Below are positions 870 through 48,098 of a stretch of 52,684 nucleotides of DNA, piece by piece. The stretch comes from Abditibacteriaceae bacterium (GTDB lineage Bacteria > Armatimonadota > Abditibacteriia > Abditibacteriales > Abditibacteriaceae): positions 1 through 52,684 of the forward strand of contig JANPJS010000261.1 in NCBI GenBank assembly GCA_031425655.1, written 5' to 3'. Positions within the stretch are counted from its first letter, which is position 1. Every line of letters starts with the position of its first letter. Made by a program: the position numbers and the translations under genes. The notes beneath the pieces were generated by a model, which saw only the letters and a list, made by a program, of their open reading frames with translations, searched no databases and was not told where the DNA came from.

Positions 870-889
870 ATGTTCGGTATTTGTTCGGA

Positions 890-4471: not shown

Positions 4472-5347
4472 TCGCTTCCTGCCGCCAGCCTCAACCGTGC
4501 CGCTTAAACGGGATGCTGGCCGCATCTTGTGTAGAATGTGCCGGAAGCGCCCGGCAGCCGCGAGCTTAGGCACCTACTGTTCCAATTTTTGCCTTCAAGA
4601 GTGGCTCTTGCGACGTGACCCGCAGTTGGTGCGCGCGAAGCTGATCGAGCGTGACAATGGTATATGCCAACAGTGCGGCACCGATACGAAGGTCTGGATT
4701 GGCCCTAAAGAGAAAAAGCCGGGATTTCGTGCGCCGGGTGAACTGCGTTATACATTTGAAGCCCACCATCGTCAGGCTGTAATCGAGGGTGGCGGGTGTT
4801 GCGGACTCGATGGTTACGCGACGCTTTGTCGCCCTTGTCATACGCGGGAAACCGTAGCTTTAGCCCAGCGCCTCGCCGTCTCCCGGCACCGCCGCCGAAC
4901 TCTTTCGATTCTCGAATTTTTGGCGGGCCGACCAGGGCAGCGGGCTGCAACGCTCGACGAACTTGTGTTGGCGACGGGCCTGCAGTTTCGGCTGTGCGCG
5001 AGCGGCTTAGGCCGCTGGTGGCGAGCGGTGACATCGCCGTTTCGGTGCGGGGCCATAAGAAGTTGTTCGTGATGGCACCGCAGGCGTTGGTGCTATTGAA
5101 AGAATTAGAAGGGGTGTTTTATTTCCCAGACGACGAGCAGGAGAAGGCCAGCCCAGGTGGTGCGTTGTCGGCTCCGGCGCCCACCGACTCCGAAGCTCTG
5201 CGCGAATCCGCGCTCGATCATTTGAACGCGACGCGACGTGACCGGCGCAATTCCAACGACGTTTCCGAGTTGCACTCTGAGGCTCTGGCGGGTCGGGCGC
5301 GCAACCGACGCCCGCCGGGCAAGGGTCGGCGGCGGTTTCTGGCATAG
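4461..5347 (+). pseudogene. HNH endonuclease with C-terminal winged-HTH-like region, split by a 1-nt frameshift near 4983
   Basis: CRMC..CSNFC, RDNGICQQCG, FEAHHRQAVIEGGG and YATLCRPCH mark the HNH domain. The helix-turn-helix-like text ...LVLATGL continues as VSAVRERLRPLVASGDI in the frame of ORF 4796-5347. Confidence 0.7.
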
Positions 5348-18419: not shown

Positions 18420-19256
18420 ATGAAACATACCACCGAAAAGGAGTTGATCTCCAACCGTAACCACCCAGCCATCAAGCGAATTCACAACCTGCAAAACCGC
18501 ACCGACCGCGACCGCACCGGCTTGTTCTTCGTAGAGGGCCTGCGATTCGTCGCCCAGGCCGTGGAACACAAGGCCCCGATTCGCACCATCGTCTACGCAC
18601 CGGCCCTGCTAAGCAGCCCCTTCGCGCAGCGCCTGGTGCGCCTGCAACGCTACGCAGGCACTCGCTGCCTGGCCGTAGCGCCCGAAGTTCTTCACAGTCT
18701 GGCGCTCAATGACGATCCGCAAGGCATCGGCGCCGTCGTGGAACAGAAGTGGACGCCATTAGCGAGTGTGTCGCCTAAGAAGGGCCTCTGTTGGCTGGCT
18801 CTGGAAACCATAAAATCGCCTGGCAACCTCGGCACAATTGTCCGAACCTGCGACGCAGTTGGTGCTGCTGGTTTGCTCCTGATAGGCGACAACGCAGACC
18901 CTTATCACCCGGCTTGTGTGCGTGCGAGCATGGGCGCCATGTTTACCCTCGATTTCGTCCGCACCGACATGGATGAATTTCTGCGGTGGAAAAAGCAGCA
19001 CGACTGCACCCTGGTTGGCACTTCGCCGTCAGCGCAGGCGGAATACAACGGTGTCGAATATCCTGCTCCGCTTTTGCTTTTTATGGGCGGCGAGCGTAAA
19101 GGATTGTCACAGGAACAGCAGCAGATGTGCGACCTGATGGTGAGAATCCCCATGATTGGCCGCAGCGACTCCCTAAACCTGGCGGTGGCGACGGGCGTGA
19201 TGCTCTATGAGGTTTTGCGGCAACAGAGAGCGGTGATGTCGGTTCCGGCACTTTAG
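18420..19256 (+). CDS. TrmH/SpoU family RNA 2'-O-methyltransferase
   Basis: ISNRNHPAIK, FFVEG, PQGIGAVV, IKSPGNLGTIVRT, RASMGA, MGGERKGLS, IPMIGRSDSLNLAVATGVMLYE. Confidence 0.92.
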   Translation: MKHTTEKELISNRNHPAIKRIHNLQNRTDRDRTGLFFVEGLRFVAQAVEHKAPIRTIVYAPALLSSPFAQRLVRLQRYAGTRCLAVAPEVLHSLALNDDPQGIGAVVEQKWTPLASVSPKKGLCWLALETIKSPGNLGTIVRTCDAVGAAGLLLIGDNADPYHPACVRASMGAMFTLDFVRTDMDEFLRWKKQHDCTLVGTSPSAQAEYNGVEYPAPLLLFMGGERKGLSQEQQQMCDLMVRIPMIGRSDSLNLAVATGVMLYEVLRQQRAVMSVPAL

Positions 19257-19340
19257 CTCTCATGGCAAGGCTGCCAGTCGTTTTATTAGGATTGATGCAA
19301 CGGTTGTGTTTAGCCCTCATTGGAAACGACCGAGACAACG

Positions 19341-20195
19341 ATGCCAACTTTAATGACGCAACTGCGCCAGGCCATTCTGCACTGGGCGCAATCAAATCCC
19401 GACATCCGTTCTGTGATAGAAGTCGGTGCTGGTGTTCGTTCCGACCACCCTGCCGACGCCTGGTCTGACCTCGATTTAGAGCTTTACATCACCGATGTGA
19501 GCCGCTATGCGTCGCATAACGCCTGGTTCGAGGCATTTGCAACTGTGTGGGTTTATTTGCCGCTCCATGTCGAAGGCGGCTTCCCGTCGCGGCTTGTCAT
19601 ATTTGAGGGCGGGAACAAGGTTGATTTTGTTCTTTATTCAGTCGAAGAACTAAAGCGGCGCGCACAGTGGCAGGCTCTGCCGGAGATTTATCGTCGAGGT
19701 TATCGTATCGCCTTAGACAAAGACCACGTCGCCGCCGGTATCCCAGCCTCGCCGTTTGCACCGTCGAAGCCTGAGCCTCCATTGGCGTCAACCTTTCTCT
19801 TCACCGTCCAAGAGTTCTGGTTTGAAGCGTTTCATGTAGCCAAGTATCTGCGGCGCGGCGATTTATGGAGCGTGAAGTTCCGAGACCGGGCCACCAAAGA
19901 CGGCTTGCTTCAAATGATGGAGTGGCACGCTCAGGTGGTGCGCGGAATTGAAGATACCTGGCACAGTGGCAGGTTCATGAAGGAGTGGACGGAAGCGGAA
20001 ACCTGGACTGCTCTTCATGAGGCTTTTGGCGGCTTTGATTCGCAGGACAGTTGGCAGGCGCTGTTGGTGACGATGGATACTTTTCGACGATTGGCAATGG
20101 AAACGGCAGCGGGCTTAGGTTATGCGTATCCGACAGATGTAGATACCAATATGTCGGAGTTCATCGAATCACTCAGAAGACAAGGTGAAAGCTGA
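19341..20195 (+). CDS. Aminoglycoside 6-adenylyltransferase (AadE/AadK-like) family protein
   Basis: WAQSNPDIRSVI..GAGVR...ADAWSDLDLELY, KVDFVL, LDKD, EFWFEAFHVAKYLRRGDLW, WHSGRFMKEW. Confidence 0.85.
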   Translation: MPTLMTQLRQAILHWAQSNPDIRSVIEVGAGVRSDHPADAWSDLDLELYITDVSRYASHNAWFEAFATVWVYLPLHVEGGFPSRLVIFEGGNKVDFVLYSVEELKRRAQWQALPEIYRRGYRIALDKDHVAAGIPASPFAPSKPEPPLASTFLFTVQEFWFEAFHVAKYLRRGDLWSVKFRDRATKDGLLQMMEWHAQVVRGIEDTWHSGRFMKEWTEAETWTALHEAFGGFDSQDSWQALLVTMDTFRRLAMETAAGLGYAYPTDVDTNMSEFIESLRRQGES

Positions 20196-20197
20196 TT

Positions 20198-20371
20198 GAT
20201 CTTTTCCGCAATGTAGCCCGACAGGTGAAGAGCAGATTCTTCACGATGGACGTGGCCCAACGCACGGACGGAACATGGATCATCGTCGAATTAGGTGACG
20301 GTCAAGTGGCAGGACTGCCGGAATGTGCTGAGGCGAGCGGATTTTATCGTTTGCTGTCGAAGGTCGTGTAA
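20198..20371 (+). pseudogene. C-terminal fragment of an ATP-grasp (R2K-like) protein
   Basis: Translates as DLFRNVARQVKSRFFTMDVAQRTDGTWIIVELGDGQVAGLPECAEASGFYRLLSKVV*; the N-terminal part is missing. Confidence 0.65.
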
Positions 20372-20375
20372 AGCA

Positions 20376-20750
20376 ATGGTTCAACCCTCTCTCAATCTCA
20401 CCGTGGTGCGAACAGCCAATATGGATGCTTGCCTGGCCTTTTATTGCGCTCTGGGCCTGACGTTTCAGCAGGAGCAACACGGCTCTGGCCCGATTCACTA
20501 CTCCTGCGAATTAGGCAACACCGTGATCGAAATCTATCCTGGTGAACCGGGCACGGCTCCTGATCGAAAAAGCGGCGGCGCGACGATGCTGGGTTTTACC
20601 GTTGGCTCTCTGGATGCCGTTTTGGAAGCACTGCGTCCTTTAGGGGTGGAGCCTGCGGCGCCTCCTAAAGAGTCGGTTTGGGGCCGTCGCGTTCTGGTGA
20701 TTGATCCTGATGGCCGGGCCATTGATTTGATCGAATCTCCGACCCCATGA
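20376..20750 (+). CDS. VOC / glyoxalase-bleomycin resistance family protein
   Basis: LNLTVVRTANMDACLAFY, EQHGSGPIHYS, LGFTVGSLD, WGRRVLVIDPDGRAIDL. Confidence 0.88.
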   Translation: MVQPSLNLTVVRTANMDACLAFYCALGLTFQQEQHGSGPIHYSCELGNTVIEIYPGEPGTAPDRKSGGATMLGFTVGSLDAVLEALRPLGVEPAAPPKESVWGRRVLVIDPDGRAIDLIESPTP

Positions 20751-20762
20751 TTGTGTTGAGAA

Positions 20763-21563
20763 GTGACCGATCAGCTTGAACCTTTTATGGAGATACCGGC
20801 GATACACAGAGAAACGGCAGCGTTCTGGGACTCGATCAGCCACTGGTATGGCGAGCGCGACGAAGCTGAGTCCATCGCATATCTTCAGGCAGGCGGCAAC
20901 TACCTGTTTGAAAATGAGAAACGGATGCTCGGCGATCTCTCGCCGTGGTGCAGGCGCGCGATCCACCTGCAATGCTCTCATGGCAACGATGCCCTGTCCC
21001 TGCTTCGTCAGGGCGCAGCCGAAGTGATTGGGGTTGACATTACCCAGCGGTTGATCGCTGTGGCACGTCGCAAAACGCTGGCACTGGGCGCATCGGCGAC
21101 TTGGCACTGCTGCGACATTTTGAAAACCCCAGCTATTTTGGATGGAACGGCTGACCTGGTTTATACCGGCAAGGGTGCGCTGTGTTGGATGACGGACTTA
21201 GAAGCCTGGGCCAGAGTCGTGGCTCGGCTACTGGTGCCAGGTGGGCGCTTCTTCATTTACGAATCGCATCCCCTGGACTGGGTCTGGGATGTGGGTGCGA
21301 CGGAATTTGTCCTGGATCGGGAGCATGGGAATTACTTCTCGGACAAGTTCAGAAATAGTCTATTCTCCGTTACGGAGCCAACCCCACACTACCGTCAGTG
21401 GACTATGAGTCAGATCGTGAATACGCTGATAGCAGCAGGACTGGTTATCGAACGGCTTGACGAATATCCCGAACCGTTTTGGGGTCAGTTTCCGCATATT
21501 CCTGATAAAGCTCTTTGCCGTTTGCCGCACACGTTTGCTCTGATGGCACACAAGGCCAAATAA
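20763..21563 (+). CDS. Class I SAM-dependent methyltransferase
   Basis: AIHLQCSHGND, GVDIT, DLVYTGKGALCW, LVPGGRFFIYESHP. Confidence 0.88.
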   Translation: MTDQLEPFMEIPAIHRETAAFWDSISHWYGERDEAESIAYLQAGGNYLFENEKRMLGDLSPWCRRAIHLQCSHGNDALSLLRQGAAEVIGVDITQRLIAVARRKTLALGASATWHCCDILKTPAILDGTADLVYTGKGALCWMTDLEAWARVVARLLVPGGRFFIYESHPLDWVWDVGATEFVLDREHGNYFSDKFRNSLFSVTEPTPHYRQWTMSQIVNTLIAAGLVIERLDEYPEPFWGQFPHIPDKALCRLPHTFALMAHKAK

Positions 21564-21657
21564 GGCTAAGCGACGGACGGCGACAGCGGTGTAAGGACAA
21601 AGCGACCAGCAGCGAGCGGCGCGTGGGAAGAATTTCCTGCGCGCCCTTTTGTTTTTG

Positions 21658-21723
21658 GAGTAGCGGTAAGGATTTACCGCTACTCATAAAATGCAAAAAT
21701 TCCCTCCCAGCTATTAAAAAGTG
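21658..21723 (+). promoter_or_regulatory. Module 1: perfect hairpin plus conserved 37-bp upstream motif
   Basis: GAGTAGCGGTAA-GGAT-TTACCGCTACTC, then TAAAATGCAAAAATTCCCTCCCAGCTATTAAAAAGTG (21687-21723), then AAGGAG RBS. Confidence 0.7.
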
Positions 21724-21749
21724 AAGAACAACAAAAGGAGATTGGCGCG

Positions 21750-22142
21750 ATGAACTCAGCCCCGCTCAACCCCAACCGGATCGAAATGAAAACTGTTACC
21801 AACGGTTATGCTGTGGCCGTCGTGAGCGATCAGGGCATCAATTGCTATGTAGAGTCCGTCGTTATCAAGCCAGGCGAAGGCCCGTTTCCAGTGACCCTTG
21901 CCGAGGCTTATGTCAACACCCTCGTGACGTTCCATCGCTGGATCGCAGCTTATAGTGGCACCGGCCACTACTACAACTTAGTTGACAGGATTGAAATCAT
22001 GCGCGTGGCAACCATTGAAGAAGTCGAAGAACTTCGCAATAAGCTCTACCAAGAAGAGCGGTTTCTGCATACCAGCCCCGTCATGAGCGATGCTGGCGCC
22101 GTCATGTCTTGGGACGTTCATGCTCTGCGATCCAACTACTAA
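21750..22142 (+). CDS. Hypothetical protein
   Basis: AAGGAG RBS; follows motif copy 1. Confidence 0.7.
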   Translation: MNSAPLNPNRIEMKTVTNGYAVAVVSDQGINCYVESVVIKPGEGPFPVTLAEAYVNTLVTFHRWIAAYSGTGHYYNLVDRIEIMRVATIEEVEELRNKLYQEERFLHTSPVMSDAGAVMSWDVHALRSNY

Positions 22143-22150
22143 GGAGACCA

Positions 22151-22453
22151 ATGACGAAGACTGAATTGAAGGAATTGTGCGAGGCCCTGGCAGTGTGCGT
22201 TGACCGTGATGTCAACACGAATAACGGCTGGGGTTTTGGTGGCGCCCACAAGACGGTTTACCACTTGTCGAACGGCCACTCGGTGCATATTGGAACGGCT
22301 TACTTTCGTCACTTGAAGCCGCAGCCGTTCGCAAATATCCGCAATGAGCGTGGCGTGATCGTTGAGCCGGAAGGCGTGAAAAACGTCGCCGATATGCTGA
22401 ATAGCGCGATGGCGAAGGGCGAAATCAAGAAGAATGAGGCCGTGAAGGTTTAG
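22151..22453 (+). CDS. Hypothetical protein
   Basis: AAGGAG RBS overlapping the previous stop; MTKTELKELCEAL start. Confidence 0.7.
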   Translation: MTKTELKELCEALAVCVDRDVNTNNGWGFGGAHKTVYHLSNGHSVHIGTAYFRHLKPQPFANIRNERGVIVEPEGVKNVADMLNSAMAKGEIKKNEAVKV

Positions 22454-22458
22454 CATCT

Positions 22459-22538
22459 GGGCCGGAGCAGAAATCATCTGCTCCGGCCCTCATCGTTTCT
22501 GTAAAATGCAAAAATTCCCGCACAGCTATTAGATAGTG
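22459..22538 (+). promoter_or_regulatory. Module 2: perfect hairpin plus conserved 37-bp upstream motif
   Basis: GGGCCGGAGCAGA-AATCA-TCTGCTCCGGCCC, then TAAAATGCAAAAATTCCCGCACAGCTATTAGATAGTG (22502-22538; 33/37 identical to copy 1). Confidence 0.7.
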
Positions 22539-22552
22539 GAAGGGAGAATTTT

Positions 22553-22687
22553 ATGAAAAGTTACATCGTTTACTTGGACGGCGAAGAAGTCGGAATCATC
22601 AAGGCAGACAGCCACAACGCTGCCGAGAAAAAGGCCCAAAGGAAGTATGCTGGGCGATTCGTAGTAGTGGCCTACACCGAGATGTGA
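22553..22687 (+). CDS. Small hypothetical protein, 44 aa, not in the ORF track
   Basis: GGGAG RBS; MKSYIVYLDGEEVGIIKADSHNAAEKKAQRKYAGRFVVVAYTEM*. Confidence 0.7.
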   Translation: MKSYIVYLDGEEVGIIKADSHNAAEKKAQRKYAGRFVVVAYTEM

Positions 22688-22702
22688 CGAGCCATTCCGA
22701 GA

Positions 22703-22777
22703 CGCTCAGGCGCCTACTGAACCTGAGTGGAGATATGTGCTGTTAAGTAAAAATTCTCGCGAAGCTATTGGGTAGTG
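22703..22777 (+). promoter_or_regulatory. Module 3: weaker hairpin plus diverged copy of the motif
   Basis: CGCTCAGG...CCTGAGTG, then AAAAATTCTC-GCGA-AGCTATT-GGGT-AGTG (22749-22777), then AAGGAG RBS. Confidence 0.6.
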
Positions 22778-22798
22778 GGAAACAAAAAGGAGATGAAT

Positions 22799-22978
22799 AT
22801 GGCAGGTGGATTAACAGGCGTAACGCGGTATCGTGACGATGATCCAGTTTGGAAAGAAGGACAGGGCATCGGCCTGTTGCCTTGTGGGAAATCGACCGCG
22901 CAGGTAATGCTGGACGCACCGAACCAAGAAGTCGGCGGCGAAAGCGACGAACGACGCAGGCCGGAGCCGACAGAATGA
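22799..22978 (+). CDS. Small hypothetical protein
   Basis: AAGGAG RBS 6 nt upstream; ATGA overlap with the next ORF. Confidence 0.55.
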   Translation: MAGGLTGVTRYRDDDPVWKEGQGIGLLPCGKSTAQVMLDAPNQEVGGESDERRRPEPTE

Positions 22979-23265
22979 GTGACGAGCATTCGCAGCATCC
23001 AGACCCGTCGCAGGTAATGGCGTCGCTGCGTGAAATCGCACGCGCGTGGCAAGGAGCCACTTGGCTGGGGCAAGCCGCATCGGTCTCGATTGGACGCGAG
23101 GCATCGGACGCGCTTCTTGAAATAGTGCGGATTCCACTCCGCCGCGCAGCGATGCAGCAAATAAACCAAATGCGGATTTCACTCTTAGAGTGTGAACCCC
23201 GTAACCCGACCGGGAAAGGAGAAACAGATAGGCTGGTGAAGCCAGCCGACAGAGATTGTTCTTGA
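22975..23265 (+). CDS. Hypothetical protein
   Basis: ATGA coupling to the upstream ORF and GGAG RBS. Confidence 0.45.
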   Translation: MSDEHSQHPDPSQVMASLREIARAWQGATWLGQAASVSIGREASDALLEIVRIPLRRAAMQQINQMRISLLECEPRNPTGKGETDRLVKPADRDCS

Positions 23266-23381
23266 CAGATTGGAGTTCAACATCTCAGAGATGCCGCGCG
23301 TGAAGCGGCACCCCAACCGAATCCTACGGTGGGAACGGCGAATCATCGCCGGATGCGCGGGAGTGATCCCGAAAGGAAAAA

Positions 23382-25133
23382 ATGGAAACACCCTCTACAA
23401 TCCAGCGGCCCCATCTGAGCGCCGCTATTCAGGCCGCCGCGCGCTTCTGCGCCACCGACGGCTACCTGCCGATTCTCAACAGCGTGCTGGTTCAGTGCGA
23501 CGGCCAGCGGTTGTTCGCAACCGGAACTGACCTCAATGTTTTTGGCACCTGCGCCGTGCCGTGCCAGAGCGAGCCATTCGCGGTAGTCGTAGACCCTGGC
23601 GGTATCATTGACCTGCTCGCCCACACCCAAACGGACGATCTGGCGCTTCGAGTGACTGCAACTGGCTACTTAGAAATCACACACCAAACTGCGCGCTGCA
23701 TCAGCAGGTTTAGTTTCCCGGTTATTTCCGCCTCGGATTTTCCTGTCATGCCGGGGCACACCGGCGACAGCCTGACGCTGGATGCCGCTCGCCTTGCCGG
23801 TGCCCTGAAGGCGGTGTTGCCCTTTGCACCCAAGCCGTCTTCGCGACGCTGGCATCAGACGCCACCGGCGATCTTTTTCCAGGCCAGCGGCGACAGTCTC
23901 ACAGTGGTCGCCTGCGATGGCTCACGCTTCAACCAGGCCACATTACCGTTGGAGCATACCGATCTGCCTGAAGGTCGCACCGTAGCTCTTGTTCCTGCTG
24001 CTCTGGATAACCTGTTGCGTTTGCTAAAAGGCACTCCCGAAGGTGCCACCGTGCAATTGCACCTGTCGGAAAAGCACGCTTCATTTTCTCTTGACGCCGC
24101 GAAAAACGTCGCGAGCATCACCGTTGGCTCCCGGCTGCTGGACGCCCAGATCGACATCGAGAAAAACGTATCCTTGTTCGAGTCGCCAGCAGGCAGCATC
24201 ACGGTGGAGAGACGCTCGATTGAGCGCGCGTTGCAACGCTTGGCGCGCATCGCCAAAAGCGACAGCAACCGTGTCGAGTTGCAAGTTCGTGACAACACGA
24301 TTCTCATGTCCGCTCACAGCATCGACACCGGAACCGCCAGCGAGCCACTGGACGCCCTTGTTGAAGGCTGTGACATAGCTTTTGCTTTGTCGCTGACCCA
24401 TCTGCAAAGCGCACTGAAGGCCACTCCAACGCCGCAAGTCGTGATCGAATACCAAGACGATGCCATGCGGGTGGTTCGCGTCGGCGGTGTCTTGATTAAG
24501 CCAGTGGCGACCCTGGCCGTTGAAGAGGCTGAGCGCGCCGCCAAACGCGCGGCACAGGAAGCCGTGGCCGCCGGTGCGGATATTCAGGGCCTGACCGATG
24601 GGATCGTGCAGCAATGGCTGGAAACCCATCGCGAGACCTTCTGGGGCAACGTCGGGGCTTTGAAGTTTAAAACGCTGGCTGAAGCTGGCTCGAAGGCCGA
24701 CTTGCCCGATGAACTGCGCGCCCTCGACACAGATATTGTGCGCGGCGTCCGCGAGCGCATCGGAGCGACGTTGGCGCAGCGGGGCATCTTGGAAGATGCC
24801 AATGACGACGCTGCCTATCAGGTGAACCAAGCCTGGGCCGACTCCCTGCTTACTGATGGCGAAGTCGAGCGGCGTGCCCGCGCCCATGAGGTGTTGGCGG
24901 AACTGGCTGCGGCTTACGTCGGCAAGCTCCGCAACCCTGACAAGATCGACTACGCCGAGCAACTGCTCGCCTACTATCAGGGCTTCACACAGGGCCAGTA
25001 TCCCAGCGCCGGACGCAGCCTATCCGGCACCGAGCAACGCGATGTGCGGACGCGCATCGGCGCGTTGATGTCACAGGTCAGGAGCGCCGTAGAGGCCACA
25101 GTGGACGTTCAATCGGTTGGTGATGCTGTATGA
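23382..25133 (+). CDS. DNA polymerase III beta-clamp (DnaN)-like protein with about 200-aa C-terminal extension
   Basis: LPILNSVLVQCDGQRLFATGTDL, ISASDFP, VVACDGSRF, SRLLDAQ, IAFALSLTHLQSALKA match the three beta-clamp domains, followed by an extra helical region. Confidence 0.8.
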   Translation: METPSTIQRPHLSAAIQAAARFCATDGYLPILNSVLVQCDGQRLFATGTDLNVFGTCAVPCQSEPFAVVVDPGGIIDLLAHTQTDDLALRVTATGYLEITHQTARCISRFSFPVISASDFPVMPGHTGDSLTLDAARLAGALKAVLPFAPKPSSRRWHQTPPAIFFQASGDSLTVVACDGSRFNQATLPLEHTDLPEGRTVALVPAALDNLLRLLKGTPEGATVQLHLSEKHASFSLDAAKNVASITVGSRLLDAQIDIEKNVSLFESPAGSITVERRSIERALQRLARIAKSDSNRVELQVRDNTILMSAHSIDTGTASEPLDALVEGCDIAFALSLTHLQSALKATPTPQVVIEYQDDAMRVVRVGGVLIKPVATLAVEEAERAAKRAAQEAVAAGADIQGLTDGIVQQWLETHRETFWGNVGALKFKTLAEAGSKADLPDELRALDTDIVRGVRERIGATLAQRGILEDANDDAAYQVNQAWADSLLTDGEVERRARAHEVLAELAAAYVGKLRNPDKIDYAEQLLAYYQGFTQGQYPSAGRSLSGTEQRDVRTRIGALMSQVRSAVEATVDVQSVGDAV

Positions 25134-25537
25134 GCCTAATTGCTGAGAATACGCACGTTACGGCTCTGTTGTTCGCCCTAACCGGCTTTGGCAGCCTTGA
25201 CATTAACCGGGCGGCCCAGTGGCTCGACGAGGCTGATGCAGATTACGGCGACTTCGCTACCTTCATAGAATCGTTCTGCCAGGACACCGGCACTTCATTT
25301 GTCGGTCTTGACATCGTGGCAGTGGTTTTGGAATTCATCGCTCAGGAGGCTAAAGCCGACGAACTGCGCGAGCATATTTACGGGAACTACCTCGACAGCC
25401 GATTCGACATCGGGGAAGAAGAGGCGGGCCGCATCCTGTATGCGGTTATGGAAGACGAGCGCGGCGCGGCCTGGCGGTTTCTGGTGGGGTTGACCGACGC
25501 GGAAGAACCCGACCAAGCCTCTTTGGACGAAGAATAA
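25130..25537 (+). CDS. Highly acidic hypothetical protein
   Basis: ATGA overlap with the DnaN-like gene; about 30 D/E versus 7 K/R in 135 aa (hand count). Confidence 0.7.
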   Translation: MSLIAENTHVTALLFALTGFGSLDINRAAQWLDEADADYGDFATFIESFCQDTGTSFVGLDIVAVVLEFIAQEAKADELREHIYGNYLDSRFDIGEEEAGRILYAVMEDERGAAWRFLVGLTDAEEPDQASLDEE

Positions 25538-25584
25538 TTTCGAGTCGTTGGCACCTTAACGCCCAAAGACTCAACGTGTTGAAA

Positions 25585-25620
25585 GCCCCGCAGGCATCCG
25601 CCTGCGGGGCATTTTTGTTG
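25585..25620 (+). terminator. Intrinsic terminator
   Basis: GCCCCGCAGGC-ATCC-GCCTGCGGGGC followed by ATTTTTGTT. Confidence 0.8.
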
Positions 25621-25711
25621 GCTGGCAGAGTCGCCCGGTGATCCGCCAGCGCAACGACAAGACACCGGCATTGCAGGGCACATTCATGCGCCCTGCCGAT
25701 AAAGGAAATTC

Positions 25712-26602
25712 ATGGCAGAGATTGAGAATTGGAGCCGTCTCGAACCGGCGGCTCTCTGGCAGGCATGGAGAGAACCATTTGTCAGCGACACCTCAGCAAT
25801 CGCTCACGCGATCTGGGCGACCAATAAGTTGATAAAGGAGTTGCCTCGAAAGCATCACTGGCAAATCCACAATGAGTTCTATTCGATCAAAGACTACTTT
25901 ATCGAATCCCAGCAACATCATCTGGTCGAAGGGCGTATTGCTCGTATAGAAACCGGGCGTTGCGGAATTTGCAACGGTGATGGAGCGGAATGGGAAGGCG
26001 GCCCAAGTTGTGGCGTTTGCAACGGCAGCGGTGAGGCAGCATCGTCAACACTCTACCAGCACGATTTTGTGATTGACGGCCAGCGATACTCCTTCCACTC
26101 TTATTACCCACCTCAACAACTCTCCGATGAACCAGGAGAAAACCTTCAGCGGTATGGGAAACCATTGACCTCAGAAGAGCGCCAGGCTCTGCGCCTCCCG
26201 CGCAAAGGTCTCCTGAAACTGCTGCGACACGTCGCGATGGATCAGTGGAGCTTCGTATCCGATAACGGAGTTCTCTATTCGCCCAAAGGATATGTGACAC
26301 ATCAGCAGGAACTCAAGGAAATCAGCTTCCAACAGGCGATTGAAACGGAATACGAACGACAGGAAAGCGGCCATGTGGCCTGCCAGAAAAGCCGGACGCG
26401 CTTGGCTTTTCTCGAAGCGAAAAGAGTTCGCTTGCAGCAGGCACTGAAGCGTCAGCAACCAGGAAGCGCACGCAGAAAGAAGACCGAAGACGACCTTCGC
26501 AAAGCGGAATCGCGCATCGCTGAGATTCAGCATCAACTGCGAAGTATTGAAGCTAATCAAGCGCGCAGAGCCGCGAAGAAGAACGGCAACGAAGGGCATT
26601 GA
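25712..26602 (+). CDS. Hypothetical protein with CxxCxGxG zinc finger and C-terminal coiled coil
   Basis: CGICNGDG...CGVCNGSG; basic coiled-coil tail; AAAGGA RBS. Confidence 0.65.
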   Translation: MAEIENWSRLEPAALWQAWREPFVSDTSAIAHAIWATNKLIKELPRKHHWQIHNEFYSIKDYFIESQQHHLVEGRIARIETGRCGICNGDGAEWEGGPSCGVCNGSGEAASSTLYQHDFVIDGQRYSFHSYYPPQQLSDEPGENLQRYGKPLTSEERQALRLPRKGLLKLLRHVAMDQWSFVSDNGVLYSPKGYVTHQQELKEISFQQAIETEYERQESGHVACQKSRTRLAFLEAKRVRLQQALKRQQPGSARRKKTEDDLRKAESRIAEIQHQLRSIEANQARRAAKKNGNEGH

Positions 26603-26718
26603 TTCAGGAGAAAATCGCCTGGCATCTACACCGATGCCAGGCATGACGACAGCCACCGTAAATCGCCGAATTCAGGGGCGGAGCGGTTGCTGTCGTGGTT
26701 TACAAAAGGAGATCGAAG

Positions 26719-27792
26719 ATGAAAGAAGGAATTTCGTTTGACGAATTGACCGGGCGAGTAGCGCGTTTAGCGTCGCAGCGCCACGATTTTTATGCGGCGA
26801 CGAATGAAATGAGGCTCAATACTGAGACCGGCGAGAGTCGTCTGGTAACGTCGAGCGGCGAGTTTGGCCTACGAGACAGCGGGCACCTTCACCTAAGTGA
26901 GTTGACCGGAATTGATCGGAGGTATTATCAGCGGATGCTGACTCAGGCACCTGCGCTGCTCGCCAACAACGTCAATCACTGGCTGGCGCGGAGCGGCCCT
27001 AAACCACGTCTTGTGCGCGCATTGGATACGACCGTTCGCGCCATCGCATCCGTGCGTTACGCCACGCTTGATAACGACGATTTGTTATCCGCTGTTGAAC
27101 CGATCATTTGCGACCTCGGCGCGAAAATTGAGTCATGCGCGCTTACAAATGAGAGCCTAACGATTAAGCTGGTGACTCCGAAGTTACAGGGCGAAGTCAA
27201 AAAAGGAGACCCAGTTCAGGCAGGGCTTGTAATCAAGAACTCAGAAGTGCGCGCCGGTGCGTTGTCCGTTCAGCCGCTGATCTTTCGTCTCGTTTGCACG
27301 AACGGCCTAATTTCCGGCGGTGCCAATGGCAAGGCCGCCAGCCGCCGCCACATCGGTCGCGACTGGCGCAGCGACAACGATTACTTTGGAGTCGTGTCGG
27401 AGAATGTCGAGCGGGCCGCTTGGGAGCGCGGTGTATGGCAAAACCTCGCGGCCAATATCCGCCAGGCCATCAGCACCGATTCGTTTCAGACGATTCTCGA
27501 ACGCCTGACTGCTACGACGCGCTTGCAAAGCACGCTCGAACCGGAGCAAATCGTGGAACGGCTCGAATCGCTGGGGCCGGAGTATCGGTTGGGGCCAGAG
27601 ATTCAAGCGCAGGTCGTCGGGCATCTTCATGCCGATGGTTATGATGGGACTCTCTGGCACGTCATAAACGGCATCACGCGGGCCGCTCAGGACGTTTCCA
27701 GCTTCGAGGTGGCAACGAGCCTTGAAGAGCTTGGCGGCAGACTGTCGGCGCTGACGCAGCGCCAATGGGATCGGCTGGTCTCAGCCAATTGA
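26719..27792 (+). CDS. DUF932 family protein (phage/plasmid mobile-element associated)
   Basis: VRAIASVRYATLDN, IKNSEVRAGAL, FRLVCTNGLI, TLWHVINGITRAAQ; AAGGAG RBS. Confidence 0.8.
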   Translation: MKEGISFDELTGRVARLASQRHDFYAATNEMRLNTETGESRLVTSSGEFGLRDSGHLHLSELTGIDRRYYQRMLTQAPALLANNVNHWLARSGPKPRLVRALDTTVRAIASVRYATLDNDDLLSAVEPIICDLGAKIESCALTNESLTIKLVTPKLQGEVKKGDPVQAGLVIKNSEVRAGALSVQPLIFRLVCTNGLISGGANGKAASRRHIGRDWRSDNDYFGVVSENVERAAWERGVWQNLAANIRQAISTDSFQTILERLTATTRLQSTLEPEQIVERLESLGPEYRLGPEIQAQVVGHLHADGYDGTLWHVINGITRAAQDVSSFEVATSLEELGGRLSALTQRQWDRLVSAN

Positions 27793-27874
27793 TCCCATTC
27801 AGCCACTCTGATTCCGGTTCTCGCAAATGCCGGATCAGTTGATTTTCCCAACGCCTTAAAACCAAATACAACAC

Positions 27875-27903
27875 AAGCCAGGGCATTCCGCCCTGGCTTT
27901 TTT
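27875..27903 (+). terminator. Intrinsic terminator
   Basis: AAGCCAGGGC-ATTCC-GCCCTGGCTT plus T-run. Confidence 0.75.
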
Positions 27904-28117
27904 GTTAGTGAAAGGAGACCTCATGACGAGAAGCATTGAGAAAAGAATTCTGCACTTATTAAAACCTCCACGCGGGCCGCCCTGTGCGGACAGCACCCTC
28001 ACAGTCACTCTGGGTGCTGCCACCGAACCCAGCCCCAGTCTCGTTGGGGTTCACGACCAACTCATCACCATGCAGGTGATACCGAACAGGAATCCGTAAG
28101 GGTTCACAAAGGAAACG

Positions 28118-28654
28118 ATGAAGAATTACATCATTGAAGCGCGCCTGGCAGCACTTGACGCGGCTCTGGGTGGACGTAACGAGATAGCTGCGACTCTTCT
28201 CGGAAAGTTGAAGAATCCAGACTCTCATGAGGGAGTGCCATATAGCGGAATGATTGACTTCAACCGCGACTTCGAGAATCAAGAGTTTGCGGTCATAGTG
28301 AAGCAGCTAAAGCGATGGTTTGAGCCTGATCTACGGACACCACTCGAACCCATTTCCGAAGAAGCTGCCTGGCTATTTGAAAGCGCCGCCATGCGATATT
28401 TCGATTACCTAATCGAAAAAGTTAAAGCTGAGGTCAAGGTGGAGACGCTGAACGCTGAGTTTCGGGAAAAGCTCTGGGCTGAAATTGCGGCCCGTCAAGG
28501 TGCCCCTAACAGGGATGTCTGGGCTGAATTCTCTCAACTCATGGATGAGCGCGATGGGGAACTCATAGAGATCGTCGCCGATGCTGTCAACCACTGCGTA
28601 GCAGAACACGCAGGTGACGAAGGAATTGTGTTGACTGCCCCCCACTTTCCGTAG
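28118..28654 (+). CDS. Hypothetical protein
   Basis: AAGGA RBS; intact 178-aa ORF. Confidence 0.65.
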   Translation: MKNYIIEARLAALDAALGGRNEIAATLLGKLKNPDSHEGVPYSGMIDFNRDFENQEFAVIVKQLKRWFEPDLRTPLEPISEEAAWLFESAAMRYFDYLIEKVKAEVKVETLNAEFREKLWAEIAARQGAPNRDVWAEFSQLMDERDGELIEIVADAVNHCVAEHAGDEGIVLTAPHFP

Positions 28655-28670
28655 TAAACGCGGTTAGAGC

Positions 28671-28713
28671 AACGGGCGCGGCCATCATGGCGATGGTCGC
28701 GCCCGTTTTATTT
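28671..28713 (+). terminator. Hairpin / terminator
   Basis: AACGGGCGCGGCCATC-ATGGC-GATGGTCGCGCCCGTT followed by TTATTT. Confidence 0.65.
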
Positions 28714-28724
28714 GGAGAAATACG

Positions 28725-29327
28725 ATGAATGAAAACAATGACTTTGATTTGTTTGAGCTTCCAGGCGATCATCCGATTTATCGCTCAGGTGTGGCATTTA
28801 TTTCCATTCCACGCAATGCTGCCAGGGAAGCACAAACGCAGTCCAGTGCAGTCATGCGTGCGCTGGCAGGCGAGCACCTTACCGGCGAAGAATTCGATGT
28901 GCTGGCTAATTCGCCGGATTGGCAACCTGTTGCTGGGCGAATGGATGTCCCTGGGGTGCGCCTGTTCGGCACCATGCTCGAACAGAAGTGTTTCCCGCCC
29001 TCACGAACCTCACAGAATGGGTTATTGCAGGTCGCTCGTCTCCACTGGCCCGACGCCCAAACAGCGTGGCTGGTCTTGTTGATTCCCATGTCTGATCGCC
29101 CGTTGGTGGCGGAGTGTGCCGACCTGAGCGGAACACTTGTGAAGATGAGGTTGCCGATTGAGAAAGTCGATGGCGCTGAGGTGACTTTCCCATTGGAGCG
29201 GCCTGACTTGCTGGTGATCGAGACCGACTGGGATGGAGAGCCTTTTGGGGAGTTTGAGGGACGAGCGAGCGAGGCTTTGTGTCACGAAGACACTGTGTTG
29301 CGCGAATTCATGGGAACTGGATTGTGA
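28725..29327 (+). CDS. Hypothetical protein
   Basis: GGAG RBS; intact 200-aa ORF. Confidence 0.6.
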   Translation: MNENNDFDLFELPGDHPIYRSGVAFISIPRNAAREAQTQSSAVMRALAGEHLTGEEFDVLANSPDWQPVAGRMDVPGVRLFGTMLEQKCFPPSRTSQNGLLQVARLHWPDAQTAWLVLLIPMSDRPLVAECADLSGTLVKMRLPIEKVDGAEVTFPLERPDLLVIETDWDGEPFGEFEGRASEALCHEDTVLREFMGTGL

Positions 29328-29832
29328 CCTGGCAGTTTCAAAGCTCCTGCCTATGCGCGGCTTTTCTGGTTCCGTAAAGCGGCGTCCAATTCTGCAATCC
29401 ACTTCACAAAATCTATGTCCGCAGCCACGCAAATGCGTCGCACCTCAACGAGCGTAACGCTTTGTTTTTTTTGCAAAACTTTCGACACATAGCCCTGCGT
29501 CATCGAAAGTCGCGCCGCGATCTGCACTTGCGTGTAACCACTCGCTTTTACAGCGGCTCGCAGATGTTCTATGACGACCTGATGGTCGTCCCAGTAATAA
29601 GGTCGTGGCGCCCGCCCCGATGCTTTTCCGATGTGTAGTCACCCAGAAGGGCATCATAGTGTCTTATTTGGCATATTCTAAATAAGCGAGACGTGTCACA
29701 CTGCGAGCATCTTTAACGCAGAGTCCAGGCGGATCAGGTGATCCGGCAACCACTTTTCCAATAGTTCTTGCGTGACTCGCTGAAGCAGAGCCGCAGGGAA
29801 ACAGTTCGATCACAGCTTCTAAAAGGATTCCG

Positions 29833-31062
29833 ATGGCTCAAATTGATTCGCTCATCGCACGACTGGTGCAGAGCAATGCGGAGCGCGCGGTGCTGCGCGC
29901 CGATGCACCATTGCAGGTTTTTGCTGGTGGCCGTCAGACGCAAGGTTCGCTTATAACCGAAGCGCAACTGCAAAGCTCCTTACGGGAAGTTATGCCGGTG
30001 GCTCAGCGCCCCGAACTGGATCGGCGCGGCACCTTCCTGTTTCCATACAACTCGCCTCACGGCCAATTCACGATCAACGTAAACACAGCCGGGGATAAAC
30101 TTGAAGTCACCGTAACACCGGCGATCACCCCGGCGGCCCCGGTGCAGGCTCCGGCCCCAGCGCAACCACGGCAGGCTGCTCCTTCGGCTTTAACAGGCCA
30201 GGTATTTTGTCAGCGGTGTGGGGTTGCAAACAACAATGGCGCCCGCTTCTGCTCCGGCTGCGGCGAACCAATGGCAGCCCAAACAACACCGAATCCTGCG
30301 CCAGCAAGCACTAACACTCACCCACAGATGCCAGCACAGGTAGTTTCGGGCACTGAGACAAAGAAGCCGAAAACGGGACAGTGGCTCGCTCTGGCAGCCC
30401 TTCTCGCGCCGCCGATGGGCTGTATCACCATACCCGTTGCCCTGATCCTGCTTGCCGTGTTGGCAGGCGCCGGTCTCGCGTTCGCGCCATTGTTGTTGGC
30501 TGCTGGGGCCTCGTTCTATGTGTGGAAAACGGTGGAGATGGAGAAGAACAAAAAGCTGCTCTCCATCGCCGGGATTCTGTTCGTGGGCCTGGTTCTCAAC
30601 GGCCTCCTGGCTGTGGCACTCAGCAAGAACAACCCTAACTCTGAAGTGAGCCGCGTTGCCACGAATAGCGATAGCGAGAAGCCAACTTCACCGCCGCGTT
30701 CAACCGCAGAAAAAGTGACCGAAGCCCCTACGTCTGCGCCGGTGGCACCCGCTGCGACACAGCCGCCTTCCGCGTCTCCGGCGAGAAGTAGTGGCGTGAA
30801 CGATCTCAAGGTTGAAGACTGGGATTTCAAGCGCGGCACTTTTGGAATGGGAGTCGTGACAGGCACGATTCGCAACACTGGCACTCGCACGTTCAATTAC
30901 GTCCAGATCGAGGTCACTGGTTATGATGCAACTGGCGCGCAGGTAGGAAGCTCATTGGCAAACATCAACAATCTTGCACCTGATGGCCGGTGGAATTTCG
31001 AGACCTTACCCATGACTGATAAGGCCGTGAGGGCCAAGATTACCGACATCAAAGCGTGGTAG
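29833..31062 (+). CDS. Membrane protein: PilT-N-terminal-like domain, zinc ribbon, TM helices and FxLYD-like domain
   Basis: MAQIDSLIARLVQSNAERAVLRAD...FTINV; CQRCG...CSGCG; hydrophobic helices; VTGTIRNTG...YVQIEVTGYDATGAQVG...NLAPDGRWNFE. Confidence 0.65.
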   Translation: MAQIDSLIARLVQSNAERAVLRADAPLQVFAGGRQTQGSLITEAQLQSSLREVMPVAQRPELDRRGTFLFPYNSPHGQFTINVNTAGDKLEVTVTPAITPAAPVQAPAPAQPRQAAPSALTGQVFCQRCGVANNNGARFCSGCGEPMAAQTTPNPAPASTNTHPQMPAQVVSGTETKKPKTGQWLALAALLAPPMGCITIPVALILLAVLAGAGLAFAPLLLAAGASFYVWKTVEMEKNKKLLSIAGILFVGLVLNGLLAVALSKNNPNSEVSRVATNSDSEKPTSPPRSTAEKVTEAPTSAPVAPAATQPPSASPARSSGVNDLKVEDWDFKRGTFGMGVVTGTIRNTGTRTFNYVQIEVTGYDATGAQVGSSLANINNLAPDGRWNFETLPMTDKAVRAKITDIKAW

Positions 31063-31313
31063 CCCATTTCATCTGATAAAATGCCTCGTGTGCTACTGAA
31101 GGCGTTAAGGCCATCCGGTCAGGGCGCGCCCAGTGCGGCGGCGCCAGAACCACCAAAACCTACTGCGGCACCTGTGCCTGACTTGGCGCCCACACCTGCG
31201 CCAAAAATTTCTATTGGCGCAGGCTCAGCGCCGCGCGATGTCCGACTCGAAGACTAACGAAAACAGACAGCTTCCTGGCAGGCGAAGAGTAGAATTGGAA
31301 CACAGGAAAACAG

Positions 31314-31769
31314 TTATCTGCCTTCCGGCTGAATGACTTGGGATAGGAGAATCGTGTTGATACCCAGCACCGTCGCAAACTGCGCGTCGTTCGTCACGAC
31401 GGCCTTGCAGCCTGAGATACGGGCTGTCGCGGCATGAATGGCATCGGGCAGCGTCAATTGCGCGGTGGCTCGTAAGCGCGCCGCTTCGATCAATATGTCG
31501 GCGCGCATGGGGCACACAACCAGGTGCGGTGAGTTCTGAATTGCCTGTTTGTAGGCTTTCTGCGCGGCCCGGTTCTTATTCTGGATCGGCCTCACCAGAA
31601 CCTCGGCCAGCGTTAATTCGCTCGTCACAGCTTGGATGTCGCCGCGCTCAGTTGCCTCGAAGAGCGCGGTGACTTCTTGGATGAAGCGCGGGTGCGATTC
31701 ATAAGCGTAAATAAAAATGTTAGCGTCGAGGTAGACCCGCTGCCCGAAAAGAGCTTTCACGAACTCCAT
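31314..31769 (-). CDS. PIN-domain (VapC family) toxin
   Basis: VYLDANIFIY, TSELTLAEVL, LPDAIHAATA, VTND. Confidence 0.9.
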   Translation of the reverse strand: MEFVKALFGQRVYLDANIFIYAYESHPRFIQEVTALFEATERGDIQAVTSELTLAEVLVRPIQNKNRAAQKAYKQAIQNSPHLVVCPMRADILIEAARLRATAQLTLPDAIHAATARISGCKAVVTNDAQFATVLGINTILLSQVIQPEGR

Positions 31770-31966
31770 GTCGCACGCTCCGCTCGGATGAAGACATCAA
31801 CCTCTTCGATGCTTTCAAAGTCTGGCTTGCCTGCACCGATCAACGCGAGAAGTGGCCCCTGATTCTGCAAGCGTTTCGGTTCTCGTCCTGCGGGCTGTGC
31901 GGAATCTTGAGTTTCCGTATTCGGGATTCGCGCGGAATCGTCATTCTGTTCGCCGCTATCACTCAT
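31757..31966 (-). CDS. Putative antitoxin
   Basis: Small ORF overlapping the toxin start; LLALIGAGKPDFESIEEVDVFIRAERATW tail typical of PIN partners. Confidence 0.7.
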   Translation of the reverse strand: MSDSGEQNDDSARIPNTETQDSAQPAGREPKRLQNQGPLLALIGAGKPDFESIEEVDVFIRAERATWSS

Positions 31967-32636
31967 GGGTGTCGCCTGCATCTACTAACTCGTTTTTCAC
32001 AACTGGCTTCAGCATCCAATGCTGGTCGCTTTGGACGTGATTCGGACGGACATATTTGGCGATGCAAGAGTGAAAGTTTGCTTCCGCAAACGCTTCGCTG
32101 CGCCGCACCACATAGCCCTCCTGTGGCCCGCCAAACGCCGATTGTCCGCTGAAACAAGCCTTGACCCGCTTTTCGTCCCAGAGGCCCCTGTAAAGCACTG
32201 GGGGCGTCAATAACGGCTGCCCGTTGGCTGGATCAACAATCGTCGGACAAAAGGCCACCGTATCATCCCACGACAGGAATTTATCCCCATCATGGACGCC
32301 GAAGGCGACGTAGTAAGTTGGCAGCGCCCGATAGTGAATCGAATGCAGCGCATAAAGGCTCTCGCCGCAGATGCGCCAACCTGTCGGGATAAGATGCTTG
32401 ATTCTCGCATGAAACGACTTCACCCAGCCGCGCGAAACATGATGCCTGCTGTCAAGAGAACGGGCGTGCAGGTGCGTGCGGTAGAGGGTGGTATTCTCAC
32501 CGTCGAGCTTTTCCGTGACGACAATCTCCCGGCCCCTGAAGACCGAGAGGTCACGCAGCACATGATCGCCATCGGGGCCGATGGTGTCCGACCAGGGTAG
32601 GTGGTGGGTGCGTGCATACTTAACGCTTTGTTGCAT
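31959..32636 (-). CDS. ATP-dependent RNA ligase family protein
   Basis: KYARTHHLPWS, motif I TEKLDGEN, ICGESLYA, EGYVVR, IAKYVR. Confidence 0.88.
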   Translation of the reverse strand: MQQSVKYARTHHLPWSDTIGPDGDHVLRDLSVFRGREIVVTEKLDGENTTLYRTHLHARSLDSRHHVSRGWVKSFHARIKHLIPTGWRICGESLYALHSIHYRALPTYYVAFGVHDGDKFLSWDDTVAFCPTIVDPANGQPLLTPPVLYRGLWDEKRVKACFSGQSAFGGPQEGYVVRRSEAFAEANFHSCIAKYVRPNHVQSDQHWMLKPVVKNELVDAGDTHE

Positions 32637-33612: not shown

Positions 33613-35577
33613 TCAACCGGATTCGCCTTCATGGAGTTGCAGCGCGGCTTCGTAAGCCTCTTGAAAGTCCAATTGCGTATCCATCTCCGGCGCGATTTTC
33701 TTGAAGCCAACATACATCAAGGCCAGCAATTGCAGGCCGCTGAACTCTTCACCGGGCGCAGAGCGCAAGTGGTAACGCCGGTCAGGATCGGAGTAATCAA
33801 TGCCGTTTTGGCCGACCGTAGCGACTTCCATTGTGAGTGTCCGAATGTCGTTGTCGTCCATCTGCTCGAAACGTCGCAGTGCGCTCAGGCAATACATCAC
33901 CGTTGCCGGGTGTTTTTGCTTTAGCAGTTCGGGGTTGGTGCTGCCTTCAGGCGTTTGCGGCGGTGCCTCGAAGCCCGCCGGTTTCGCTGGTTGTGGCCCG
34001 TTCTCGCGCCACTCATACCATTCGTTCAGCGCCAGCACTTTGGCGGCTTCGTCAACGAATTTGTATTCGTCTCCATGTTGATAGTCCGGCATCATGCGCT
34101 GCCATAAACCAAATAGCTCCTGACCCACCTTCATGAATTCCGTGTCTTGATAGGCGCGGGCATACTCGGTTTTGCCGCCATAGATATGATCGGTAAACAG
34201 GGCGTAGGCACAGTTCAAGGCGTTGCTGGCGCGGAAGATCGAAGGTGGCGTGATCTTACGGATGTCGCGGTTAGTGAGAATCGAGGCATTCTCGGTTTGC
34301 CGGGCGTGCAGCGACACGAATTGGCTGGGGCGCAGTTCGGGGTAACGCTCAAAGACCCGATACTCGATCACCATGTCAAGCGGCGTGTTGAAAAGCTGGT
34401 TCGCCAAGCCACCGACCAGTTGGAGAATTACGCTGGTGATCTCGCCTTCGGGATAGCCGCTGCGTTGCAAGCGAAAAATGTCCTTACTGATCGAGCGCAA
34501 CGCGATCTCTCTGGTGCCGATTGTGGTGGCAAAAGCCCGGTTTCTTCCTGCCTGACGCGCTTCGTGTTCCAGATGAATGTGTTCGAGTTCGTGTGCCAAG
34601 TGATGCGGCGTGATCGCTGGAATCTTGTTCTTATATTTGATCCGATGGGTGTCAGTATTGTGATTCCACGCCATCTGCGATACGGCGTCCGTAGAAAGCG
34701 AATTATCTTCTTTGACTTCGATCCGGTTGCCGGTCTGGCTTTCCAACTCCTGTTTGCGCCCCTCAATCACCTGCATGAACGAATCATACGCCCGCTCGGC
34801 GATCTGCTTGTTGATTTGCAAATACAAGGCGCGGGCGGCAGCGTAAACCGATTCGCTGCGCGGATCGCTGGACTTAGGCCGCCCAAACAAGGAATCAATC
34901 GTTTGCAGGGATTCGGTCAACTGTCCGGCCTGGGCGTCAACCAGGGCGATGCCGTAATACGAGTTGGGATAGTCAGGATCGACTTCCCTGGCGCGCTCCA
35001 AAAGTTCGCGGCCTCGTGCCACCTTGCCGGTCTTGATGAGCGTGCCGCCGTAGCCGCACAGCAGATACGGGTCGTCAGGACTCAGCGTGTAGGCTCTCTG
35101 GTAAAAGCGCGCGGCTTTCTCAGAATTGTCTTCGTTCTTGGAAAACAGGTTTCCCAGCAGCAAAAACGTCCAGGCATCATCCGGCGCTAAGCGCGCGGCT
35201 TCGACCAGGCGCTGTTTAGCTAATTCAATTCGATCTGATTCGAGATAAGCCATCCCCAGATTGCGCCGTGATTCAACGTGATCCGGCTGTCGTTCAAGCA
35301 CCTTCTTGTAAATATCGATGGCGCGAACGTAACCACCGCGCCCGGCCTGCTTTTCGGCGCGCTCTATCAGGTCGGCGAGTTCTTGCGGGTTCTTAGGCGC
35401 CTTTACGGGCCATTCAATGGTCGCTACGCCCTCATTAATGGCAACGGTCGCTGTCGGCAAAAATGCGTAGCACTTCCGCACAACTTCTTCGGCTTCTTCT
35501 ACCGGCAAGACTTCGAGATCAACTTCACGATCCAGATCAACGATCACGTCGGATAAGGCAACTGTCACACGGTTCAT
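33613..35577 (-). CDS. TPR-repeat protein with HEXXH zincin-like metallopeptidase domain
   Basis: About five TPRs (AIDIYKKVLERQPDH, RRNLGMAY, AARLAPDDAWTFLLLGNLF and others); HHLAHELEH and downstream NTPLDMVIE. Confidence 0.8.
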   Translation of the reverse strand: MNRVTVALSDVIVDLDREVDLEVLPVEEAEEVVRKCYAFLPTATVAINEGVATIEWPVKAPKNPQELADLIERAEKQAGRGGYVRAIDIYKKVLERQPDHVESRRNLGMAYLESDRIELAKQRLVEAARLAPDDAWTFLLLGNLFSKNEDNSEKAARFYQRAYTLSPDDPYLLCGYGGTLIKTGKVARGRELLERAREVDPDYPNSYYGIALVDAQAGQLTESLQTIDSLFGRPKSSDPRSESVYAAARALYLQINKQIAERAYDSFMQVIEGRKQELESQTGNRIEVKEDNSLSTDAVSQMAWNHNTDTHRIKYKNKIPAITPHHLAHELEHIHLEHEARQAGRNRAFATTIGTREIALRSISKDIFRLQRSGYPEGEITSVILQLVGGLANQLFNTPLDMVIEYRVFERYPELRPSQFVSLHARQTENASILTNRDIRKITPPSIFRASNALNCAYALFTDHIYGGKTEYARAYQDTEFMKVGQELFGLWQRMMPDYQHGDEYKFVDEAAKVLALNEWYEWRENGPQPAKPAGFEAPPQTPEGSTNPELLKQKHPATVMYCLSALRRFEQMDDNDIRTLTMEVATVGQNGIDYSDPDRRYHLRSAPGEEFSGLQLLALMYVGFKKIAPEMDTQLDFQEAYEAALQLHEGESG

Positions 35578-35704
35578 ATCTTTTAATTCCGACAATTGGA
35601 GAAACGAAAACAACGGATTAGTATAGGTTCGGGTCTCTACGCACCGCTTCGCCGACTCAGTCACGGCTAAACTAAGACAAAGTAACGACAGCAACTTAGA
35701 AGTG

Positions 35705-37750: not shown

Positions 37751-37772
37751 AGGTGTTCTTTTCGATTTTCGT

Positions 37773-40106: not shown

Positions 40107-40141
40107 TAGCACTAAGAGCTTGCACGTCTTATTTAACTGGT

Positions 40142-40178
40142 GTGAAATAAGGCCACTCAGAAGGCCGCCTTATTTCAC
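40142..40178. repeat. 12-bp inverted repeat in the pglX-pglZ intergenic region
   Basis: GTGAAATAAGGC-N13-GCCTTATTTCAC. Confidence 0.6.
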
Positions 40179-40215
40179 GAAATGGCCCTAAATTAAAATA
40201 AGGAGCAGACAAAGC

Positions 40216-48094: not shown

Positions 48095-48098
48095 GTTT

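Follow-up and report, generated by a model that had tools for sequence, protein, structure and literature searches.

The window analysed here, 52,684 nucleotides of contig JANPJS010000261.1 of an Abditibacteriaceae bacterium, carries a gene, P0001, for a divergent bacterial sliding clamp (DnaN) that runs on into a fused C-terminal module. As judged by alignment, the conserved partner-binding cleft is lost both in P0001 and in its full-length homologue P0012, the extension is as strongly constrained as the clamp, and P0001 is not a normal clamp. This comparison suggests a new role for the clamp fold. Our preferred reading, which we hold as plausible but somewhat short of probable, is that the fusion is a repurposed pseudo-clamp, serving a horizontally acquired island as an accessory DNA-binding protein without the host loader or polymerase. 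The gene and the parts of its product are as follows.

23382 to 25133, forward strand: clamp-fusion gene P0001, 583 residues (open reading frame, ORF; Pfam; full-length homologue P0012)
23382 to 24512, forward strand: three-domain beta-clamp fold, residues 1-377, with an apparently remodelled cleft, Arg at I272 and more basic inner helices
24513 to 24632, forward strand: long conserved helix, residues 378-417, exiting the clamp at the rim of the cleft (17/25 identity over 378-402; models)
24651 to 24851, forward strand: probable winged-helix subdomain, residues ~424-490 (extension-only model; sub-threshold fold matches)
24855 to 25094, forward strand: three-helix bundle, residues 492-571, as modelled, without a specific relative

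The gene is a single open frame of 583 codons, without internal stop or frameshift, and an AAGGA ribosome site lies immediately 5' of it. All three beta-clamp domains were matched above the Pfam cut-offs (residues 6-124, 165-244 and 272-360). Together with structural alignment, these matches place three topologically equal clamp-fold domains in the order and fold of DnaN; the score against TIGR00663 is 88 bits, below the equivalog cut-off of 137.65. Structural alignments with solved clamps stop at residues 376-381, leaving about 206 residues beyond the normal clamp end, and an Ala/Glu-rich stretch begins at residue 381. An earlier note on this DNA had described a divergent DnaN with a C-terminal domain of about 200 residues, which agrees with the clamp fold (residues 6-377) and 206-residue extension found here. 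The note also rightly placed the clamp outside a dnaA-recF context: neither gene is adjacent to the fusion gene in the window, and a canonical dnaA-dnaN-recF locus, its gene names read from translations, was located on a separate contig (C91) of the same genome. The host DnaN encoded there is 29% identical to P0001. A Logan contig from the probable source run covers positions 19000-32000 without a differing letter or gap, which makes misassembly of the locus less likely, with the proviso that this check is not independent of the assembly.

When the extension by itself was searched against 1.84 billion representatives, two proteins came back, the query itself and P0012 (601 residues, JGI/IMG, E 6.6e-23). 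P0012 has the same architecture, a clamp followed by the same extension, and aligns with P0001 over the full length (215 of 590 positions identical). The two proteins are 37% identical in the clamp (141/377) and 37% identical in the extension (77/206). Residues 378-402 are the best-conserved part (17/25 identical), a value that may be raised by their Ala/Glu/Arg-rich composition. This segment had been taken for an Ala/Glu-rich linker; the composition stands, but a plain linker does not, as the segment is the best conserved of all and is modelled as a helix. Each protein is the sole member of its own 90% cluster. No third member was found in further searches, whose pattern scans also missed P0012, the contig of which probably lies outside those collections. 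The fusion is real but very rare, P0001 and P0012 being its two members. Such extreme rarity could point to an accident, that is, read-through, a chance fusion, a decaying gene or misassembly. Read-through or chance fusion is refuted, however, because P0012 keeps the same architecture with both parts at 37% identity, and the shared junction in a protein that is 63% different, the intact frame and the agreement of the read-level contig make an accident of any kind scarcely credible. The extension is present in the homologue and kept as strongly as the clamp, in line with the earlier suggestion that the clamp brings a cargo domain of its own.

For analysis of the cleft, P0001 and P0012 were aligned with Escherichia coli DnaN and a set of 34 canonical clamps, of which 30 come from the host phylum. 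Cleft positions were picked from the E. coli structure, and loss was judged by alignment only. We take the cleft to lie between domains II and III and to include T172, H175, L177, F241-P242, V247 and M362-P363-M364 (E. coli numbering, as below). At a threshold of at least 85%, 49 columns are conserved, 13 in the cleft and 36 elsewhere. P0001 keeps 3/13 cleft positions and P0012 2/13, against 21/36 and 17/36 elsewhere (Fisher p 0.051 and 0.053, for two related and not independent proteins). T172 and L177, each found in 33 of the 34 canonical clamps, are replaced in both fusion proteins by C and F, respectively, and H175 by S or V. The F-P-x-Y motif at 241-244, with its P present in 34/34 canonical clamps, is absent from both, N320 and Y323 are altered, and the equally invariant M362 (34/34) has become K or V. 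The cleft residues R176 and P363 are retained. Non-canonical residues occupy 9 and 11 of 15 cleft positions in the fusion proteins, compared with 0-1 in 35 canonical clamps (leave-one-out). As a control, 8 clamps were taken from 45 phage and plasmid matches. All 8 have non-canonical residues at only 0-4 of the 15 positions; they keep 6-13 of the 13 cleft columns and 21-27 of the 36 elsewhere, where they are about as divergent. C172, F177, N178, L360 and V364 are new cleft residues common to P0001 and P0012. Because so many new residues are common to the two, the alignment indicates a cleft that was remodelled and then conserved, not one that decayed. An E. coli clamp without the cleft is severely impaired in binding of the loader and Pol III, as stated in the abstract of PMC2685083.

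These replacements, which went unnoticed in the earlier note, bear on its proposal of a decoy. In the plain sense, such a decoy would use its cleft to titrate the host's clamp-binding proteins, be they polymerases or proteins of repair or defence. The clamp fold is retained, and the gene is part of an island whose genes are probably early ones, both in keeping with a decoy. However, since the motif-binding cleft residues are replaced in both members, a plain decoy of this kind is very improbable; the argument leaves room for poisoning through mixed dimers.

Two other extra DnaN copies were observed. One, from the same phylum (L016:1127-3256, G039:C409), is divergent and begins at about residue 304 of a 709-residue frame; its cleft is partly changed (6/13 kept) and it is without a C-terminal extension. 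The other (L015:4840-5715, G025:C160) is a second copy close to its own host's clamp; it lies among element-like orphan genes and is cut by the contig end.

The dimer interface is changed in part. At position 272, I, L or V is found in 34/34 canonical clamps and R in P0001 and P0012; L82 is replaced by T or I, and R269, E304, S104, A302 and G300 are retained. On the inner face, the DNA-contacting residues R24 and K198 are missing from the fusion proteins. Over chosen windows, the net charge of inner helices and loops is +10 in P0001 and +13 in P0012, compared with -1 to +8 in the 35 canonical clamps and 0 to +9 in the 8 element clamps. The positive charge is shifted to the 148-152 loop and domain III, and the basic 148-152 loop is conserved in both members. 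R24 is named as a DNA contact in part of 10.64898/2026.08.18.745641, and a raised inner charge without a loader is treated as a sign of direct DNA binding in sections of PMC3201878. Excerpts of PMC3022782 describe E. coli beta I272A-L273A as a monomer, and those of PMC12269063 report that R269 and L82 matter for the dimer, R269 being required for its stability. Two observations limit this evidence. Thr occupies position 272 in 4/8 element clamps (L067, L068, L069 and L072) that keep the cleft, making the position variable in elements. In addition, the isoelectric point (pI) of the whole clamp domain is 5.7 in P0001 and 7.6 in P0012, so that the high pI given as a sign of non-ring clamps in sections of PMC3201878 fits P0012 but hardly P0001. 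As to the four phage or plasmid clamps themselves, Thr272 may limit their mixing with the host clamp.

The main rival, unlikely in our view yet the most serious of the alternatives, is a hitch-hiker or poison: it would enter mixed rings with host DnaN, be loaded via the host cleft and resist unloading, and in this way take its extension along new DNA or deplete the host's pool of clamps. The corresponding passages of PMC2685083 and PMC3022782 report that E. coli protomers without a cleft form pairs with wild type, are loaded normally and support Pol III but are impaired in unloading. The retained R269-E304 pair, together with S104, A302 and G300, would favour such pairing, given the need for R269 in a stable dimer (the relevant part of PMC12269063). 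The nearest ordinary clamps of P0001 are those of the host family (27-29% identity); P0012, however, has no such preference. The changes I272 to R and L82 to T or I and an identity below 30% to the host clamp also argue against mixed rings. In trees, P0001 and P0012 are joined on a long branch and the pair is not joined to the host family; the approximately unbiased (AU) test does not reject such a joining (AU p 0.17).

The extension was modelled both alone and within the full-length protein. The helix at residues 378-417 appears in both models, with a predicted local distance difference test score (pLDDT) below 50. A winged helix had been suspected by eye ahead of any model; the extension-only model then gave a helix plus a two-strand hairpin at about 424-490, an arrangement absent from the full-length model. 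Foldseek searches with the extension returned sub-threshold matches only, and 30 of the 41 listed rows are proteins that contain a winged helix. The region at ~424-490 is acidic overall, as is the extension of P0001, and the putative recognition helix contains three conserved arginines, R457, R459 and R467. The low-confidence models describe a long helix, a probable but weakly supported winged helix and a three-helix bundle; this helical module probably binds DNA. The helical domain described in the earlier note agrees with these models, within their low confidence. The fold might instead work outside DNA biology, as a scaffold or protein-binding module with the extension as its working part. 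Changes at R24, K198, the cleft and part of the interface, and the acidic extension, would suit such a role. We consider it improbable, as the inner helices are more basic, not less, the basic 148-152 loop is conserved and there is the hint of a winged helix.

We prefer the pseudo-clamp because the cleft is lost, the interface is changed, the inner face is more basic, no loader is in view and the helix exits at the cleft rim; all steps beyond sequence comparison we infer. Lacking the cleft, the fusion would not be opened by the host loader as ordinary clamps are, and Pol III or repair enzymes would find no hold on it. A weakened interface may let it sit on DNA as a monomer, an open arc or a labile self-closing dimer, like the herpesviral UL42/UL44. 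The conserved helix, which would start from the final strand of the clamp and cross the remodelled cleft, would let the protein's own extension replace an exchangeable partner; DNA would be touched by the winged-helix-like part, and a protein by the three-helix bundle. Most likely, the fusion would keep hold of the DNA of the island itself, or mark it, soon after entry, for regulation or protection, and would not serve polymerase processivity.

The fusion gene is followed by a second gene and a hairpin.

25130 to 25537, forward strand: acidic ORF P0002, 135 residues, overlapping the fusion stop codon (ATGA)
25585 to 25610, forward strand: terminator-like hairpin ending the two-gene unit, assigned by position

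P0002 contains 30 D/E against 7 K/R (pI 4.05). One homologue was found, P0013, 73% identical over 89% and encoded on a 1.5-kb contig. Family profile searches gave no match to P0002 at E < 0.01, and a conserved clamp-binding-type motif was not found in it. The region contains 11 terminator-like hairpins and its shuffled versions 9.6, which leaves position as the sole argument for this one. The coupling to an acidic ORF that had been noted earlier appears at this locus in the ATGA overlap, and the gene pairing is seen here only. The unit may point to a private clamp, a closed sliding homodimer with its cleft re-specified for an island partner (the acidic ORF or another orphan) that loads, anchors or neutralises it. 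The replacement cleft residues common to both members, the kept R176 and P363, and a two-gene unit with overlap, terminator and a conserved acidic protein agree with this. In contrast, no ATPase or loader family was seen among the island ORFs scanned, the acidic ORF is without a conserved clamp-binding-type motif and the pairing is confined to one locus; we regard a private clamp as rather unlikely.

Directly after the unit (25712-26602) lies a 296-residue orphan with two CxxCxGxG repeats, a C-terminal coiled coil and a weak DnaJ zinc-finger match (E 0.017).

The surroundings of the fusion comprise the following features.

21750 to 29327, forward strand: co-oriented orphan-ORF island holding the fusion (ORF calls, family scan; limits approximate)
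26722 to 27792, forward strand: DUF932 gene, the sole island neighbour with a family (family scan)
21687 to 22777, forward strand: 37-nucleotide motif in three copies (21687, 22502, 22741), each 5' of a ribosome site and small ORF

The best pair of motif copies agrees at 33/37 positions, against 24-27 in 20 shuffles, and 3 of 4 genome-wide matches to the motif core fall within 21687-22777. The motif appears promoter-like; a repeated motif 5' of small ORFs is expected of early-gene clusters in mobile elements. The island stretch had no DNA match in 5/5 relatives searched, whereas 14.9-19.2 kb does match. Codon use of the fusion gene, at the 15th-25th percentile of the genome, is only mildly unusual. 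No match to an integrase, relaxase, polymerase or loader family was obtained for the 26 window proteins scanned (about half of the called ORFs), and no attachment (att) repeat was found in the window. The description "element-encoded" in the earlier note is an interpretation from context: orphan genes, DUF932 and the repeated motif make a foreign origin of the island likely, but neither a mobility gene nor an att repeat was found. The 37-nucleotide motif also figures in another possible scheme, an unlikely one in our judgement, in which the fusion is a self-loading, site-anchored clamp: the fused winged helix would find a DNA site, perhaps this motif, the clamp would wrap the duplex to regulate or protect incoming DNA, and the acidic neighbour would act as a DNA-mimic-like off switch.

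Further observations concern the island and the rest of the window. A 44-codon ORF with a good ribosome site, read by eye, follows the second motif copy (22553-22687), and a 200-residue orphan at 28725-29327 has DFDLF, a weak clamp-binding-type motif, near its N-terminus. A second DUF932 gene (31-33% identical) occurs in another orphan-ORF cluster (L014:7274-11502, G000:C66), where two ORFs are ASCH-like by eye, one with an initial QLELL clamp-binding-type motif. On the reverse strand, 33613-45973 holds a BREX-like block (a TPR protein, BrxL, PglZ, an Eco57I-type methyltransferase, a weak NucS-like match, then a DDE transposase with ends that recur on other contigs). At 887-5072, a tRNA-Asp followed by an 840-residue AAA_25 protein and a Cys-rich ORF resembles a satellite remnant, without an att repeat in the window. 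Palindromic repeats of ~130 bases (47970-48103, 49868-49991, 52053-52191) recur on many contigs of the genome.

Clamp function centres on the cleft, which is close to invariant, also in the element-borne copies checked. A lineage without it that keeps the three-domain fold over a long distance, together with its own module, would show the fold's capacity without loader or polymerase. The weight of the case is limited by two sequences, an uncultured host and an inferred mechanism; the case may serve as a test, provided by nature, of the cleft-less heterodimer model, or else as a template for tethering DNA independently of a loader. Element-borne beta clamps are already known (parts of PMC3201878 and PMC4889955), and the role of stand-alone PolIII-beta homologues is called an open question in sections of PMC4889955, for which the fusion is a concrete case. 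Phages are also reported to use the host clamp for transcription (PMC12867686). An open-access literature search found no clamp in nature that lacks the cleft and has a folded domain fused to it.

P0001 shares with bacterial DnaN (PF00712, PF02767, PF02768; TIGR00663) all three domains, their order and the fold, but differs in the replaced cleft, I272 to R, loss of R24 and K198, a chain that continues past domain III for 206 residues, a sub-cut-off TIGR00663 score and a gene outside dnaA-dnaN-recF. Its residues 6-362 match phrog_947 (E 1.6e-39). Like the phage and plasmid PolIII-beta homologues of PHROG 947 (as described in portions of PMC3201878 and PMC4889955), it is an additional clamp that lies apart from the host operon, and neither a polymerase nor a loader was seen close to it; unlike it, the 8 examined have 351-381 residues, stop at domain III and keep 6-13/13 cleft positions, and 0/45 phage or plasmid matches cover the extension. 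The engineered E. coli beta-C, also without a working cleft and the model for mixed dimers (from passages in PMC2685083 and PMC3022782), was made in the laboratory by deleting five residues from a protomer that is wild type in all else, and has no fused domain. UL42, UL44 and BMRF1 offer an analogy, not a membership: theirs is a clamp fold proposed to bind DNA directly, loader-free and with raised positive charge (part of PMC3201878). They are, however, two-domain, PCNA-like and bound to a cognate polymerase, whereas the fusion has three domains, no polymerase and, in P0001, an overall pI that is not high.
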